From UHGV virus genome UHGV-1390708: a stretch of 40,460 nt of DNA. One strand, written 5' to 3'. This document shows, piece by piece, positions 7,098 to 11,606 of the stretch. The notes beneath the pieces are model-generated. The model did no database searches and was not told the origin of the DNA. It worked only from the letters and a program-made list of their open reading frames with translations. Numbering within the stretch: the stretch's first letter is position 1; the number at the start of each line of letters is the position of its first letter. Source of the DNA: a virus. Both the position numbers and the translations under genes were made by a program.

Positions 7098-8066
7098 TTA
7101 GTAGGTTATTTTTGTTGCGAATACTTCGCCTTTTACGATGGCTGTTATGATATTTTTAGCAACATCTTCTGATGCGCCAACCTTGATAAGGTCAGCAAGT
7201 ATTTTGTTATTTACTTCTTTCCGGTGAGCTTTATCCTTTGCTCTACGCTCTTCTTCGTCCTTGATTCTTTTTTCTTCTGCTATTCTGGCTTGCTCTTTTG
7301 CTTCAGCCTCGCGACGGATTCGTTCAGCCTCCTCCTGTGCTTTTCTGCGTTCTGCTTCAATTGCTGCCTGCTTTTCTCTTTCAGCTCGTTCTGCTGCCTC
7401 TTTTGCTTCGCGCTGTGCTCGTTGCTCGGCTTCAATGCGTTCACGCTCTGCACGTTCCGCTGCGGCCTTAGCTTCTGCTTCTCGCCTTGCTGCTGCTTCA
7501 ATTTCGGCTTTTGCCTTTGCTTCGGCTTCTGCTCTGGCTTTCTCTTCAGCTTCTCTTTTTAAGCGTTCTTCATGCTCTCGCTTTTCCTGCTCCGCTTTGA
7601 GTCTTGCCTCTTCTCTTTGGCGGTCAAATTCGCGATCCATCAAAATCGCTATTTCATGGTCAGACTCAATTTGCTTTGCGAGAGCTTCAGCTGCTGCCTT
7701 AGCTTCTTCTTCGGCTTTAATCCGTGCCTGCTCCTCCTCATAATCAGTAAGAGGCTGGCGCGCCTTGGCTTTCAGTTCATCAAGGCGATCGCGCACTGTC
7801 TTGCGGTTGGCATCAATTAGCTTTGGAATTTCCTTCAGTTCAGCAACAAGGTCTTTGCCAAGACCATCGAGATATGTTTTCGTCTGCGCAACTTTATACG
7901 CCAGAGAAGCGATCTCCTTTCTGCCCTTTGCCGTTGTGATATCAGGCACAAAGGACATAACTTCACGTTCAACCTTTTGAAGGATTTCTTCAATCTGGTC
8001 GGCAGACTGAAATACAGTCATTGCATTTGCTTTTTCAATAACAACTAAATCTGTTACTTCACTCAT
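7098..8066 (-). CDS. Large coiled-coil protein, 322 aa from MSEVTDLVV. It has a globular N-terminal domain (possibly DUF1351-like), a long E/A/K/R low-complexity helix and a short C-terminal domain.
   Basis: GGAGG Shine-Dalgarno sequence before the ATG at 8066. About 150 aa of EAEAKAKAEIEAAARREAEAK-type sequence. Confidence 0.6.
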   Translation of the reverse strand: MSEVTDLVVIEKANAMTVFQSADQIEEILQKVEREVMSFVPDITTAKGRKEIASLAYKVAQTKTYLDGLGKDLVAELKEIPKLIDANRKTVRDRLDELKAKARQPLTDYEEEQARIKAEEEAKAAAEALAKQIESDHEIAILMDREFDRQREEARLKAEQEKREHEERLKREAEEKARAEAEAKAKAEIEAAARREAEAKAAAERAERERIEAEQRAQREAKEAAERAEREKQAAIEAERRKAQEEAERIRREAEAKEQARIAEEKRIKDEEERRAKDKAHRKEVNNKILADLIKVGASEDVAKNIITAIVKGEVFATKITY

Positions 8067-8077
8067 ATATCCTCCGT

Positions 8078-8107
8078 CAAAAAAATTGCCCTCACACTGG
8101 AGGGCAA
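8078..8107 (-). terminator. Intrinsic terminator inside the pL operon (tL-like).
   Basis: Minus-strand hairpin TTGCCCTC-CAGTGT-GAGGGCAA followed by TTTTTTT. Confidence 0.7.
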
Positions 8108-8241
8108 AGAAGATTTCCAATAATCAGAACAAGTCGGCTCCTGTTTAGTTACGAGCGACATTGCTCCGTGTATTCACTCGTTGGAATGAATACACAGCGC
8201 AGTGTTTATTCTGTTGTTTATGCCAAAAATAAAGGCCACCA

Positions 8242-8442
8242 TCAGGCAGCCTTGTTATTCTGTTTACCAAGTTCTCTGGCAATCATTGCCGTCGTTCGTA
8301 TTGCCCATTTATCGACATATTTCCCATCCTCCATTACAGGGAACATTTCTTCAGGCTTAACCATGCATTCCGATTGCAGCTTGCATCCATTGCATCGCTT
8401 GAATTGTCCACACCATTGATTTTTATCAATAGTCGTAGTCAT
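8242..8442 (-). CDS. ral: Ral restriction-alleviation protein, 66 aa.
   Basis: MTTTIDKNQWCGQFKRCNGCKLQSECMVKPEEMF... matches my recollection of lambda Ral. It sits in the N-to-cIII interval. Confidence 0.7.
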   Translation of the reverse strand: MTTTIDKNQWCGQFKRCNGCKLQSECMVKPEEMFPVMEDGKYVDKWAIRTTAMIARELGKQNNKAA

Positions 8443-8512
8443 ACGGATAGTCCTGGTATTGTTCCATCACATCCTGCGGATGCTCTTCGAACTCTTCAAA
8501 TTCTTCTTCCAT
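8426..8512 (-). CDS. Lambda orf28-like acidic mini-protein, 28 aa (MEEEFEEFEEHPQDVMEQYQDYPYDYDY).
   Basis: Hand-translated. Its size and its position between N and ral match lambda orf28. Confidence 0.45.
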   Translation of the reverse strand: MEEEFEEFEEHPQDVMEQYQDYPYDYDY

Positions 8513-8570
8513 ATCTCACCTCAAATAAGTGGTTTGCTGCCTAATTTCATTTTCTGGCGACCAACACAAG

Positions 8571-8843
8571 TCATCTTGCTGTCAGTTGTTTTGATTTCCG
8601 GTAGCCTGCCGCGTAAATGGCTACGTTTGGCAGGCAAATACTTCCACTGCATTCATCTGCCTTCTTGCAGCGAAGGCTTCCGAGTGATGCTGCTTTGTCT
8701 GCTCTGACGCAACTAGAGATCTTTAGCGCAATTTTTCGCGCAAGTCTCTGCTCTTGCATTGCCTGTTCACGTTGAGCCTGCCTGCGTGCTCTGCGGCGAT
8801 TTCTGGCGTTATCGTCAGCCAGATATGTAATGACTACTGTCAT
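8571..8843 (-). CDS. N: N-family transcription antiterminator, 90 aa, with an N-terminal arginine-rich motif.
   Basis: Arginine-rich motif DDNARNRRRARRQAQREQ. The C-terminal AIYAAGYRKSKQLTAR resembles the P22 gp24 / phi21 N tail. GGAGG Shine-Dalgarno sequence. It is the first gene downstream of pL and nutL. Confidence 0.8.
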   Translation of the reverse strand: MTVVITYLADDNARNRRRARRQAQREQAMQEQRLARKIALKISSCVRADKAASLGSLRCKKADECSGSICLPNVAIYAAGYRKSKQLTAR

Positions 8844-9200
8844 GTTGACCTCCGATGATTGACTTTGGTGGTGACGCGCCGGGTGCTTATCTTCCGGTTG
8901 CCGTCGTGCAGCTGCACTTCACGTCACCCCAAAGCCAACTACTCTTTGACTCACACTCTCGCAGTGAGCGCGCTCATGCCCTTGAGTCTCTGTCGCTTAT
9001 TAGCCGCTGATAACCGGTGCGCGTCTGGCATTCGCGCTGCCTTTCCGGAGCATGTTCCCTTATTTACCCTCACATCGGTCTGCTAAACCTGCTCGCCATT
9101 ACGCGACTCGGGGCAGCATCATTACTGCTGCATTGCCTTTCGGCTGCGGTCTAACCGCGTTAGTGCACCATTACGGCACCTCCTGTTTGGTTAAACTCAG

Positions 9201-9242
9201 TTCCCGCATTTCGGCGGGACAATCCCATCAATGTTAAAGAGC
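9201..9242 (-). promoter_or_regulatory. nutL: nutL: boxA GCTCTTTAACA (9232-9242) plus a boxB hairpin (9201-9220).
   Basis: The minus strand reads GCTCTTTAACA-N12-GTCCCGCCGAAATGCGGGAA. The same boxA and boxB recur at nutR. Confidence 0.75.
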
Positions 9243-9288
9243 CTGCCAATCTGTTCCGTTTGGCTACCAGCGTCCTGCTGATGGCTTA

Positions 9289-9374
9289 AAGATAACTTAG
9301 GTTATAGGTGTGGTCAATAACCTAATTTATATTTTGTGGTAAATAAGTTATAAGTGATGGATAACAAAGGTATT
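9289..9374 (-). promoter_or_regulatory. OL: pL (-35 TTGACC at 9312-9317, -10 TATCTT at 9289-9294, 17-nt spacer) with OL operators.
   Basis: Operator sites are ATAACttagGTTAT (9292-9305), ATAACctaaTTTAT (9317-9330) and a degenerate ATAACaaagGTATT (9361-9374). Confidence 0.7.
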
Positions 9375-9496
9375 TTATTTTTGTAAATGTTGCTGATTGA
9401 TTGGTGTTTGAGGGCTTGCGTGCGGGGTGAAGGTGTTACCTTTGGCTTGATGCTTGTCTATGATGATGATGGGTGATTGGGTGGTGAACGGCAGGA

Positions 9497-9530
9497 AAAG
9501 AAAACCCGGCGCTGAGGCCGGGTGTTTTTA
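9497..9530 (-). terminator. Intrinsic terminator after the cI-linked moron. The hairpin has T-runs on both strands.
   Basis: CCCGGC-gctgag-GCCGGG. The minus strand continues TTTTCTTTTCC. Confidence 0.75.
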
Positions 9531-9824
9531 GTCTTTTCTTTTGCTTAGCATTTCGTCGATTTCTAAGTCAATACGATATTGATCTATTGCTTTTCTCTCG
9601 TTTGGGGTTGGTATTTTATACTGTTCAATTAGATCTGTTGTGTATTTTATTTCATCTAATGTGATTTTTATATCAGAGAGAATCTCTTTTATATCAATTA
9701 GATGCTCTTCTTCTTTTGCGCGATTAGAGCTATGTTCAATCACTTGAGATAGCTTTTTACTAATGCTTAGCAAAACAAAAAGAATGATGACCAAAACAAC
9801 AACAAAAACTATCAGAAATTCCAT
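9528..9824 (-). CDS. Membrane-anchored coiled-coil protein, 98 aa, family unknown. A lysogen-expressed moron in the rex position.
   Basis: GGAGGG Shine-Dalgarno sequence 3 nt before the ATG, 40 nt after the cI stop. N-terminal TM segment EFLIVFVVVLVIILFVLLSI followed by a charged helical region. Clearly AT-rich relative to the flanks. It has its own terminator. Confidence 0.75.
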   Translation of the reverse strand: MEFLIVFVVVLVIILFVLLSISKKLSQVIEHSSNRAKEEEHLIDIKEILSDIKITLDEIKYTTDLIEQYKIPTPNERKAIDQYRIDLEIDEMLSKRKD

Positions 9825-9864
9825 TATCCCTCCGCACTTCCGTAAGTCTTCTTCTGATTATCGG

Positions 9865-10572
9865 TTACCAACTATGAGACGACCAGAATACTCTGCCAAT
9901 AATCCTTACGGTTTCATGAAATTCATCTCTATCCATTACTTCATCCGGGTACTCTTCGCGATTTATTGATCTGATTATCACCGATGTAGGGGTGGCGATT
10001 AATGTTTTTACTCGTAACAAATCAGACTGGCAAATAGCGTAGGTTTTACCATCTCTGATGGTGGTATCTTGCGTGTTAACACCAACAACATCGCCATCGT
10101 GAAGCGTTGGTTCCATGCTTTGCCCTACAACCCTAACTAGCTTGGCTGATCTTTCAGATACTCCCATCTTTTTCAGATAGTGCTTTCTGAAAACCAAAGA
10201 GAACTCCGATGATTCCTCTAGCTCGCAGCTACCGCTTCCAGCTGAAAGCGAAACGTTAAGAAGAGGCAACGCAACAAACTCGTCATCGTTTCTTTTAATG
10301 TCTTCCCATACCACAGCTTTTAAAGATGACTCACGGACATTGGATGGTTCTTCATGTGCACCATCCCTCATTTCACCAATACCAGAACTAAGCCATTCAG
10401 GGCGCACTTTTAAAGCATTGGCTAATTCAACCATCTTGCGAGATCCGTTTGTTTTACCGGACGACATCTTCTGTATGGCTGGCTGAGATATTCCAACCAT
10501 GTCAGCAAGCTGTGATTGTGATACCCCTGCTGAGCTCATGGCTGCATTTAGTCTTTCTGCGAATGTTTTCAT
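9865..10572 (-). CDS. cI: CI-type prophage repressor (HTH_XRE plus S24 LexA-like autopeptidase), 235 aa from MKTFAERLN.
   Basis: HTH segment SQSQLADMVGISQPAIQKMSSG. Ala-Gly candidate cleavage site in LSAGSG. Ser in GQSMEPT and Lys in LRVK. The track start at 10602 is a TTG codon inside an operator. Confidence 0.85.
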   Translation of the reverse strand: MKTFAERLNAAMSSAGVSQSQLADMVGISQPAIQKMSSGKTNGSRKMVELANALKVRPEWLSSGIGEMRDGAHEEPSNVRESSLKAVVWEDIKRNDDEFVALPLLNVSLSAGSGSCELEESSEFSLVFRKHYLKKMGVSERSAKLVRVVGQSMEPTLHDGDVVGVNTQDTTIRDGKTYAICQSDLLRVKTLIATPTSVIIRSINREEYPDEVMDRDEFHETVRIIGRVFWSSHSW

Positions 10573-10584
10573 ACCCACAAATCT

Positions 10585-10650
10585 ATAACTACGGTTATCC
10601 AAAGTAAAATAACAAAGGTTATTGCTATTTTTTATAACTTGAGTTATCTT
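10585..10650. promoter_or_regulatory. OR: OR: three 14-bp operators ATAAC-N4-GTTAT interleaved with pR and a candidate pRM.
   Basis: Perfect sites at 10585-10598, 10609-10622 and 10634-10647. pR has -35 TTGCTA (10622-10627) and -10 TATCTT (10645-10650), 17-nt spacer. Candidate pRM -10 is TATAGA (minus strand, 10582-10587), 9 nt from the cI ATG. Confidence 0.75.
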
Positions 10651-10683
10651 TGGTTATAAGTAATGACCACAAGAGGTATGCTC

Positions 10684-10908
10684 ATGAATTTAGTAATTCA
10701 ACGAGCCTTGAAAATTGTCGGTAGCCAAAAGCGCCTTGCCGACAAGTGTGGTGTAACGCAGCCAGCAGTACACAAATGGCTGAAAGGCGGGTTGGTCTCT
10801 CCAGAGAAAGTTACCGCCATCGTTAACGCCACTGGAGGGCAGATCAAGGCTTACGAAATTCGCCCCGATTTGCCACACCTGTTTCCAAAACCGAATCAGG
10901 CAGCATAA
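10684..10908 (+). CDS. cro: Cro-type HTH repressor, 74 aa from MNLVIQRAL.
   Basis: AAGAGG Shine-Dalgarno sequence 7 nt upstream of the ATG at 10684. HTH segment QKRLADKCGVTQPAVHKWLKG. It is the first gene after pR. Confidence 0.8.
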   Translation: MNLVIQRALKIVGSQKRLADKCGVTQPAVHKWLKGGLVSPEKVTAIVNATGGQIKAYEIRPDLPHLFPKPNQAA

Positions 10909-10915
10909 GTAACAC

Positions 10916-10960
10916 CGCTCTTTAACAGTCATGGTCCTCATTCCCGCCGAAATGCGGGAA
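10916..10960 (+). promoter_or_regulatory. nutR: nutR: boxA CGCTCTTTAACA plus boxB hairpin TTCCCGC-CGAAAT-GCGGGAA (10941-10960).
   Basis: Read directly. The boxB sequence is the same as at nutL. Confidence 0.75.
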
Positions 10961-11007
10961 TACAACGCGCATAAGTTGATGCGCATAACTTCTTATTTGC
11001 TAAGGAA

Positions 11008-11040
11008 ATACTTACATATGGTTCGTGCAAACAAACGCAA
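11008..11040 (-). promoter_or_regulatory. pRE: pRE: CII-binding TTGC-N6-TTGC (11027-11040) and -10 AAGTAT (11008-11013).
   Basis: The minus strand reads TTGCGTTTGTTTGCacgaaccatatgtAAGTAT. This is lambda-type and overlaps the cII start. Confidence 0.75.
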
Positions 11041-11311
11041 CGAGGCTCTAAGAATCGAGAGTGCGTTGCTTAACAAAATCGCAATGCTTGGAACTGAGAA
11101 AACAGCGGAAGCTGTGGGAGTTGATAAGTCGCAGATCAGCAGGTGGAAGAGGGACTGGATTCCAAAGTTCTCAATGCTGCTTGCTGTTCTTGAATGGGGT
11201 GTCGTTGACGACGACATGGCCCGATTGGCACGACAAGTTGCTTCGATTCTCACCAATAAAAAACGCCCGGCGGCAACCGAGCGTTCTGATCAAATACAAA
11301 TGGAATTTTAA
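11018..11311 (+). CDS. cII: CII transcriptional activator, 97 aa.
   Basis: MVRANKRNEALRIESALLNKIAMLGTEKTAEAVGVDKSQISRWKRDWIPKF is lambda CII as I recall it. Confidence 0.9.
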   Translation: MVRANKRNEALRIESALLNKIAMLGTEKTAEAVGVDKSQISRWKRDWIPKFSMLLAVLEWGVVDDDMARLARQVASILTNKKRPAATERSDQIQMEF

Positions 11312-11333
11312 CAACATCCAGCGAGGTAATTAT

Positions 11334-11606
11334 ATGCGAAACAAAGGCTTTAATCCACCTGATACACACAAAGAAGCTAAGCGTTTGCGCTTCCTTCGTT
11401 CCATTGATGAAAGAACTCAAATATCTTTTGTGAAAGTTGCCAGAACTGAGCTTCTGAAGGCTGAGGCGAGGGCGTTGCTCCCGTCTCTACCAAAAGAGGA
11501 GGGGTATACGTTCATTCCAAACGCATTTCTGGAAAAGCTGCTCAAAGAAGACATATCCGTAAGTCAGTTTAACGATGTTCTTAAGGTCTTTCGTCAAGGC
11601 AGGTAG
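11334..11606 (+). CDS. Hypothetical protein, 90 aa, between cII and the replication genes.
   Basis: GAGG Shine-Dalgarno sequence 8 nt before the ATG at 11334. The stop abuts the next gene's start. Confidence 0.6.
   Translation: MRNKGFNPPDTHKEAKRLRFLRSIDERTQISFVKVARTELLKAEARALLPSLPKEEGYTFIPNAFLEKLLKEDISVSQFNDVLKVFRQGR

Follow-up and report, generated by a model that had tools for sequence, protein, structure and literature searches.

What fills the unusually long interval between the nutL site and the antitermination gene N in the viral genome UHGV-1390708? The analysed stretch of 40,460 nucleotides (nt), hereafter the window, is a complete HK620-like (P22-like) temperate phage, and from oL to N it aligns with phage HK620, in which pL, nutL and N are annotated. 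An earlier note, made from the letters alone, had put the interval at about 355 nt and read it as one N-specific leader, free of open reading frames (ORFs) and rich in perfect palindromes, with a large hairpin next to the N gene that might be analogous but unrelated to the lambda structure cut by ribonuclease III (RNase III). The spacing (357 nt as measured) was borne out, as was the lack of a conserved gene-size ORF in this N leader, whereas the single-leader description was not, since 251 nt of the interval are a separate module that is absent from HK620 and also found in contexts without N. We consider it rather likely that the interval is a composite leader, in which this portable module lies between nutL and a hairpin homologous to the one cut by RNase III in the lambda N leader.

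The inserted module

The unusual length of the N leader is explained by a 251-nt insertion (8949-9199) relative to HK620. The HK620 genome aligned to window positions 9382-9200 and 8948-8575 with nothing between them, and where the window has the insert, right after boxB, HK620 reads ...GCGGGAAC|CAAAGAG... (GGGAAC|CAAAGAG). The flanks of the insert were 97-100% identical to HK620, the shared leader and gene had a DNA identity of 96.8%, and only about 108 nt separate nutL from N in the HK620 leader. Neither terminal inverted repeats nor a target-site duplication was found at the insertion; the 5-nt sequence TGAGT is present at both ends of the insert, and HK620 lacks TGAGT at the site. The module has the following parts.

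8949..9199, minus strand: inserted RNA module of 251 nt that is a clean insertion against HK620 and has its mini-ORF at the 5' end
9179..9184, minus strand: Shine-Dalgarno (SD) sequence AGGAGG of the mini-ORF, with a 7-nt spacer
9160..9171, minus strand: mini-ORF AUG GUG CAC UAA (Met-Val-His-stop)
8950..9158, minus strand: folded core of the module (RNAalifold and covariation)
9144-9135, minus strand: GNRA hairpin of the folded core
9131-9126/9118-9113, 9106-9103/9096-9093 and 9048-9045/9017-9014, minus strand: helices of the folded core
9037-9033/9023-9019, 8986-8983/8976-8973 and 8968-8964/8954-8950, minus strand: helices of the folded core
9158-9156/8972-8970 and 9149-9146/9007-9004, minus strand: possible long-range pairs

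The module is widespread among mobile elements of the Enterobacterales. The insert was 99% identical in phage mEp213, which has two N genes and carries it ahead of the second. Its identity was 88% in two Stx2c phages and 77-83% in Hafnia, Klebsiella and Providencia phages and an E. coli siphovirus, and it is almost never annotated. It was found in 62/5426 complete E. coli genomes (once or at most twice in each), in at least 119 IMG/VR viral contigs and in 22 plasmids, and an identity of 70-88% was kept across phages and plasmids of Escherichia, Klebsiella, Hafnia, Providencia, Pantoea, Rahnella, Pectobacterium and Yersinia. A scan of genome contigs with a 15-base pattern gave only chance matches in unrelated phyla, none of which was real when examined with nhmmer. 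Each locus holds one copy of the module, and a second copy in the manner of putR was therefore rejected.

Two arrangements of the copies may be recorded here. In mEp213 (L001 1227-1559, 2712-2984) there are two tandem N genes with three small ORFs between them, and ahead of the second N there stand a boxB remnant, the module and the RNase III hairpin, with an identity of 98% to the window. At three other loci (L068:4627-4688, L039:3631-3692 and L021:2998-3045) an extra partial 5' end lies about 115-180 nt upstream of the full copy and holds the SD, the mini-ORF and the first helix (model positions 4-66).

To describe the fold, module copies were gathered with one conserved 18-mer and 77 distinct sequences were aligned (alignment A2). 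RNAalifold predicted 35 pairs, 18 of them with double compensatory changes, and in the resulting 38-pair structure 98.0% of cells were paired, with changes on both sides in 21/38 pairs (154 cells). None of 500 column shuffles reached any of five pairing measures, and when the partners were slid by 1-3 columns pairing fell to 23-39%. In the RNAalifold pair table (hand count, column 39/259 left out) there were 61 G-U cells and 11 A-C cells, and given this excess of G-U over A-C the fold lies on the strand with the sense of the N mRNA. A protein-coding gene on either strand was ruled out: the homologues had no coding signature (codon-phase variability 0.083, 0.122 and 0.105), 513/659 gap runs were not multiples of 3, and no frame was open in all copies. 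That the module is a functional RNA is well supported and in our view very probable. Rfam 15 covariance models, run over 7500-11500, gave no match in 8949-9199 at E <= 10, and literature searches of prophage small RNAs (AgvB, AsxR, Pas) and structured-RNA surveys turned up nothing matching the module, which is apparently a structured RNA family not described before.

The description of the leader as ORF-free held for genes and failed for the mini-ORF. The only minus-strand ORF of at least 30 amino acids (aa) within the interval in the ORF list has 40 aa and a GTG start, whereas the conserved three-codon mini-ORF with its strong SD had been missed. The start codon of the mini-ORF occupied one fixed alignment position in 77/77 copies, 12-13 nt ahead of the first conserved helix, and was ATG in 69 copies, TTG in 5, ATC in 2 and ATA in 1. 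Its length was 1, 2, 3 or 6 sense codons in every copy, and 72/77 copies had an SD match of at least 4 nt. In all, 29 different peptides were encoded, a lone Met among them, and the peptide is therefore not the conserved feature. A ribosome on the mini-ORF would, as we model it, abut the fold and need not unwind it.

Genomic contexts and possible role of the module

The module was always co-oriented with local transcription and lay in the untranslated head of a long operon. Phage copies occurred in three contexts: (i) downstream of the repressor gene, pL and nutL and ahead of N, which is the arrangement of the window; (ii) directly behind the Q gene, which belongs to either of two unrelated families, with holin or tRNA genes following; and (iii) downstream of the Rz spanin genes, ahead of the terminase region. 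The copy of E. coli KL53 stands just after Q and is flanked by a tR'-like terminator on one side and a second terminator on the other. In Pantoea, Rahnella and Pectobacterium the module occurs on plasmids that are conjugative or mobilisable, about 50-60 nt before the first gene of a type IVb pilus operon, and on a Yersinia plasmid it lies ahead of a VirB-like type IV secretion operon. Terminator-like sites were found at most 70 nt upstream of the start codon in 24/86 contexts. The common denominator is an untranslated gap that heads a long operon of a mobile element, and this shared position argues for a role in cis.

The neighbourhoods were also inspected for partners. The Pectobacterium plasmid pLPa1526 encodes a NusG paralogue (L255:2431-2940; Pfam NusG NGN, E = 2.7e-6) two genes ahead of its module and pil operon. 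That such a paralogue regularly accompanies the module was rejected, given that it occurred on the Pectobacterium plasmid only and that the upstream genes in Pantoea and Rahnella are unrelated, and so was the ops/RfaH motif, since matches to GCGGTAG were randomly scattered and had no association with the module. On two viral contigs (L047:4296-4500 and L072:11340-11470) a module on the pL side is followed by a lambda-like stem base and then by a boxB-like hairpin, CCCGC-AUCA-GCGGG. The small gene after this hairpin has neither an N-like arginine-rich motif nor a PHROG match, and no boxA was seen upstream in these two copies; these phages may lack an N-type system.

On this analysis the module could plausibly be a cis-acting operon-leader RNA, a reading that we put forward tentatively. 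A ribosome held on the start-stop ORF, together with a tight fold, would deprive Rho and RNase E of free RNA, and the fold may also act on the transcribing polymerase, as do put, EAR and conAn2, the only RNA antiterminators known; either route would secure expression of the long downstream operon. We regard as doubtful, and offer only as a conjecture, the further step by which the module would join put, EAR and conAn2 as a fourth system of RNA-based processive antitermination and form a new cis-leader class of Gram-negative mobile elements. The start-stop ORF and the fold of about 200 nt might then form a cassette that renders the complex or the transcript resistant to Rho-dependent or intrinsic termination, which is likewise a doubtful proposition, and it is conceivable, at a similarly low level of confidence, that this cassette passes back and forth between the pL and late operons of lambdoid phages and the pil and type IV secretion system operons of conjugative plasmids.

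Several observations weigh against these proposals. A passive role in proofing the RNA against Rho and RNases fails to explain the strong conservation of the loop sequences, and because polymerases modified by N or Q are already resistant to terminators an extra antiterminator RNA looks redundant. A terminator-like site was present within about 90 nt downstream in just 16/122 distinct contexts, and an nhmmer profile of the module gave no match at E <= 10 in HK022 22000-40751, the put region. The single-sequence fold of the module was no better than that of shuffles (z = -0.8), so that support for the fold comes from covariation and not from folding energy. The long-range helices lie on columns that are invariant by the search pattern, and since the collecting 18-mer is invariant by construction these helices were weakly tested. 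The copy on the Yersinia plasmid has no partner for one of them, which favours the local hairpin GCGGnnAGnCCGC.

It is also possible, though rather unlikely, that the module is a 'moron' in the form of a non-coding RNA of its own, which would be carried along in operon transcripts as a phage tRNA gene is, be freed by processing or termination and then act in trans. The conserved loops and a fold independent of the flanking genes would suit such an RNA, as would the classic moron and tRNA positions after Q and after the lysis cassette and the adjoining tRNA genes in Klebsiella phage RothC and tRNA-like gene in contig L072. Its release might be brought about by RNase III at the downstream hairpin, by flanking terminators or by RNase E or P, none of which we would call likely; terminators do stand on both sides in the Q context, and strong hairpins lie downstream elsewhere. 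Its target could, with equally little confidence, be the ribosome (through the SD and AUG) or else some host factor of defence or regulation. However, no promoter of its own was found, the plasmid copies lie some 50-60 nt before the first pil gene without an intervening terminator, in the manner of a 5' untranslated region, and every context is the head of a long operon.

Less credit is due to the idea of a sensor, whether a riboswitch-like aptamer or an attenuator that senses translation, in which a bound ligand or a ribosome on the start-stop ORF would switch the pairings of the module and so gate downstream expression, one alternative being the local hairpin GCGGnnAGnCCGC against the long-range helices. 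The invariant unpaired nucleotides and the multi-helix core resemble aptamers, alternative pairings exist for the GCGG and CCGC segments, and because the start codon is fixed 12-13 nt away an initiating ribosome would abut or open the first helix. Terminators follow closely in the Q context, but most contexts have none, and the downstream sequence differs wholly between contexts with no evident pairing to the core, unlike the expression platforms of riboswitches. Given also that no Rfam riboswitch was matched at E <= 10, and that peptides as short as a lone Met speak against sensing of a nascent peptide, we hold a sensor to be quite unlikely.

The N-proximal hairpin and the composite leader

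The part of the interval nearest to N is shared with HK620 and contains a hairpin on the pL transcript between nutL (9242-9202) and the SD of N (8853-8849).

8858..8939, minus strand: large hairpin with a 20-base-pair (bp) stem, a bulged A at 8869 and two small apical hairpins
8917-8906 (GTGCAGCTGCAC) and 8897-8879 (CCGG...CCGG), minus strand: apical hairpins of the large hairpin
8929..8948, minus strand: small hairpin CAAAG-(AGUAGUUGG)-CUUUG, read from the sequence; the CUUUGG strand is contested between it and the base of the large hairpin

The large hairpin had a minimum free energy of -43.5 kcal/mol (z = -3.9), none of 200 shuffles folded as well, and its extended arms were also recovered by a repeat search. 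The earlier note had rightly placed a large hairpin next to the SD of N, from which the arm ends 16 nt away, and the 7-bp inverted repeat on which it was based is present (GGTGACG at 8870-8876, CGTCACC at 8922-8928); the hairpin is bigger than described, with its 20-bp stem spanning 8858-8939. The stem is a long, stable and imperfect duplex of about two helical turns. A comparison of folds and covariation among homologous leaders, which the note had proposed, confirmed both a stable hairpin and covarying upper-stem pairs.

When the lambda pL leader was folded it gave the same hairpin as the window. The stem-base strand GGCUUUGGGGUG at 8936-8925 is identical over 12 nt to lambda at about +81 to +92, and the opposite strand CACCACCAAAG at 8873-8863 is identical over 11 nt to lambda at about +191 to +201, the bulged A included. 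Since both stem-base strands match lambda, the large hairpin is on sequence grounds homologous to the RNase III hairpin of the lambda N leader, and as such an element of a known kind, contrary to the suggestion that the two were analogous but unrelated. In an alignment of the hairpins of six phages (the window, HK620, 21, lambda, Hafnia phage yong1 and Stx2c) the flanks were conserved and the interior was entirely different. The upper stem covaried (UGACG/CGUCA, UGUGU/ACACA, UGUGG/CCACA and AUUGG/CCAAU), and the CCGG/CCGG of the inner hairpin was replaced by the compensatory CGAG/CUCG in phage 21.

RNase III is reported to cut the lambda N-leader RNA near +88 and +197 (Steege 1987; Kameyama 1991; Wilson 1997 and 2002), positions that fall inside the conserved stem-base strands. 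The sequence likeness suggests that RNase III probably cleaves the hairpin of the window at its conserved stem base as well.

Beyond the stem-base strands GGCUUUGGGGUG/CACCACCAAAG and the bulged A, the element shares with that of lambda its place between nutL and the SD of N, the form of a long imperfect hairpin and an upstream competing CAAAG segment. It differs from it in an unrelated and shorter interior, being about 82 nt overall against about 125 nt in lambda, and in lying 261 nt from boxB instead of about 20 nt, a distance due to the 251-nt insertion.

The CUUUGG strand (8929-8934) has alternative partners, the CAAAG of the small hairpin upstream or CCAAAG (8863-8868) at the base of the RNase III stem downstream, and equivalent complementary triplets were found in lambda, 21, HK620 and yong1 (in lambda CAAAGC/GCUUUG/CCAAAGC; in phage 21 CCAGAAC/GUUUUGG/CCAAAGC). 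As far as sequence can tell, this suggests a conserved conformational switch in N leaders.

It is very unlikely that the large hairpin is instead a tRNA-like minihelix processed by RNase P and not RNase III. This idea starts from the acceptor-like 7-bp stem GGUGACG/CGUCACC followed by A-CCA, and in the window, HK620, lambda and 21 the bases after the stem are ACCA or GCCA; in addition, the same stem base (UUUGGGGUGUGG...CCACACCACCAAAG) encloses an ARAGORN tRNA call on viral contig L072. Against this, the CCA pairs with an upstream UGG within the 20-bp stem, the interior has no T-arm or D-arm, ARAGORN found no tRNA or tmRNA in the window, and the lambda homologue is an established RNase III substrate. 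Once the homology with lambda had been found, the RNase P idea was thus just a minor rival. The tRNA call on L072 (11340-11430) concerns 71 nt, assigned to tRNA-Ser(tga) with the T-arm GGTTCGATTCC, between the strands UUUGGGGUGUGG and CCACACCACCAAAG. The RNase III hairpin family may have been derived from, or exchanged with, a tRNA-like gene.

Together with the sites that flank them, the module and the RNase III hairpin make up the leader whose remaining features are given below.

9865-10602, minus strand: cI-type repressor gene, with cro and cII to its right
9289..9317, minus strand: pL promoter-like site TTGACC-17-TATCTT (promoter scan), which aligns with annotated HK620 pL (L002 1475-1510)
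9202..9242, minus strand: nutL, 100% identical to annotated HK620 nutL
9242-9232, minus strand: nutL boxA GCUCUUUAACA, read from the sequence
9219-9202, minus strand: nutL boxB hairpin UCCCGC-CGAAAU-GCGGGA, read from the sequence
8849..8853, minus strand: SD of N, GGAGG, the same in HK620
8571..8843, minus strand: N antiterminator gene of 90 aa with arginine-rich motif NARNRRRARRQAQRE and start codon at 8843-8841

The promoter scan predicted a pL transcription start at about 9282. The N protein matched PHROG 271 'anti-termination protein N-like' (E = 2.6e-33) and was about 96% identical to HK620 N. The lambda leader of N is highly structured, and across it N together with the Nus factors at nutL represses translation of N, an effect modulated by RNase III (PMC5725501). 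On the composite account, which we regard as reasonably likely, the interval is the untranslated pL leader of the N gene with three separable RNA parts. At the first part, boxA and boxB of nutL, N and Nus factors would load onto RNA polymerase. The second is the portable 251-nt module, placed exactly between boxB and the remainder of the leader; it is not specific to N, the same module standing in other operon-head gaps of Enterobacterales mobile elements. At the third, the lambda-type hairpin, a cut by RNase III would part the ribosome-binding site of N from the N/Nus complex bound at nutL, and this cut would relieve autorepression and raise N translation. The hairpin shows that the lambda link of N translation to nutL and RNase III rests on a sequence block common to lambda, 21, HK620-like, Stx2c and Hafnia phages, a result that is useful but expected.

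The two perfect 12-bp palindromes that had drawn attention to the interval, GTGCAGCTGCAC at 8906-8917 and TGAGCGCGCTCA at 8965-8976, are present and exceed chance expectation: 0.08 were expected in 357 nt (P(>=2) = 0.002; 5000 dinucleotide-preserving shuffles), and the density over the whole window was likewise 0.08 per 357 nt. As functional units they did not survive comparison, neither being conserved as a palindrome among homologues. The first reads TTGCAGCTACAA in phage 21 and makes just a 4-bp apical hairpin with a 4-nt loop (8917-8906). In place of the second most homologues have TGAGCGCGGCCA or TGAGCGTGGCCA, and its composition is as follows.

8965..8976, no strand assigned: palindrome TGAGCGCGCTCA, to which helix 8986/8973 and a long-range helix each contribute their 3' strand and the terminal hairpin its 5' strand

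It is a chance juxtaposition of strands of three different helices, and both palindromes are by-products of RNA helices. That the whole 355 nt form one N-specific leader, with a structure unrelated to the lambda RNase III site, is hence hardly tenable: such a leader would accommodate a real, stable hairpin adjoining the SD of N and an excess of palindromes, but the base of the hairpin is identical to lambda, the palindromes are not conserved, and 251/355 nt are absent from HK620, in which N and the flanks are otherwise 97% identical, and present in contexts without N. Scarcely credible is the view of the insert as non-functional DNA, be it what is left of a decaying gene, a selfish repeat or a small protein gene overlooked on one of the two strands. 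In its favour one may cite the short opposite-strand hypothetical proteins annotated in some records and the clean insertion boundary relative to HK620. Against it stand 98% pairing with 21 compensatory pairs, no codon periodicity, mostly out-of-frame indels, the lack of an ORF conserved in one of the frames, the lack of terminal inverted repeats and of a target duplication, a low copy number per genome and 70-88% identity retained across many Enterobacterales genera.

The genes on either side of the leader gave some further observations. The 90-aa N ORF looks mosaic: its middle (ARKIALK...CVRADKAASLGSLRCKKA) resembles phage 21 N and its C-terminus (LPNVAIYAAGYRKSKQLTAR) P22 gp24. An overlapping frame in the N region (8521-8652) ends in ...MTCVGRQKMKLGSKPLI, an ending that resembles the C-terminus of phage 21 N; the N types may be related to one another by a frameshift. 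Between the repressor gene and pL there is an AT-rich ORF of 98 aa (9504-9824) with an N-terminal hydrophobic segment, followed by a bidirectional terminator (9504-9523); this ORF is a moron and takes the place that rexAB has in lambda and hkaS in HK620.

Comparison with known RNA systems

The inserted module is the real yield of this analysis, in that it carries an obligatory ribosome-loading start-stop ORF and is common to temperate phages and conjugative plasmids of the Enterobacterales. If it promotes read-through or protects the transcript, it would be a new RNA-based escape of mobile elements from Rho-mediated silencing and a portable part for the design of synthetic operons; if it acts in trans, it would be a new non-coding 'moron' of phages and plasmids. 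The module is testable with easy genetics in mEp213, for which HK620 is a natural deletion control.

Among known elements, the mini-ORF recalls the lambda bar minigenes and the start-stop or minimal upstream ORFs of bacteria, with which it has in common a strong SD, a start codon, 0-5 more codons and a stop on a lambdoid pL transcript. In contrast to bar, the mini-ORF of the window is a conserved, position-fixed part of a larger folded RNA while its codons vary freely, and nothing points to the toxicity by peptidyl-tRNA drop-off that defines bar. The RNAs ROOL and GOLLD are likewise conserved folds of prophages without an assigned role and sometimes lie beside tRNA genes; the module is much smaller, belongs to the Enterobacterales, has a mini-ORF and gave no Rfam match to those families.

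The JUMPStart/ops leaders that act with RfaH and the operons of NusG paralogues of the ActX/TraB type also have a conserved non-coding element in the long leaders of acquired conjugation or pilus operons. However, ops is a 12-nt DNA signal and no ops motif was associated with the module, and a NusG paralogue was found near it on one plasmid only, two genes upstream.

A further parallel is offered by cis-acting processive antiterminator RNAs in the leaders of phage and conjugation operons, namely put, EAR and conAn2 (PMC8191782). The put sites of HK022, EAR of Bacillus and conAn2 of pLS20-type plasmids are likewise structured RNAs in the leaders of long phage or conjugation operons; like the module they are transcribed within the operon that they serve and have no dedicated neighbour gene, and their contexts are antiterminated operons. 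The module has no sequence similarity to the put-site region of HK022, and it differs from EAR in that no Rfam family was matched. It is also larger, with about 210 nt and a mini-ORF against about 70 nt for put, and it coexists with N and Q.

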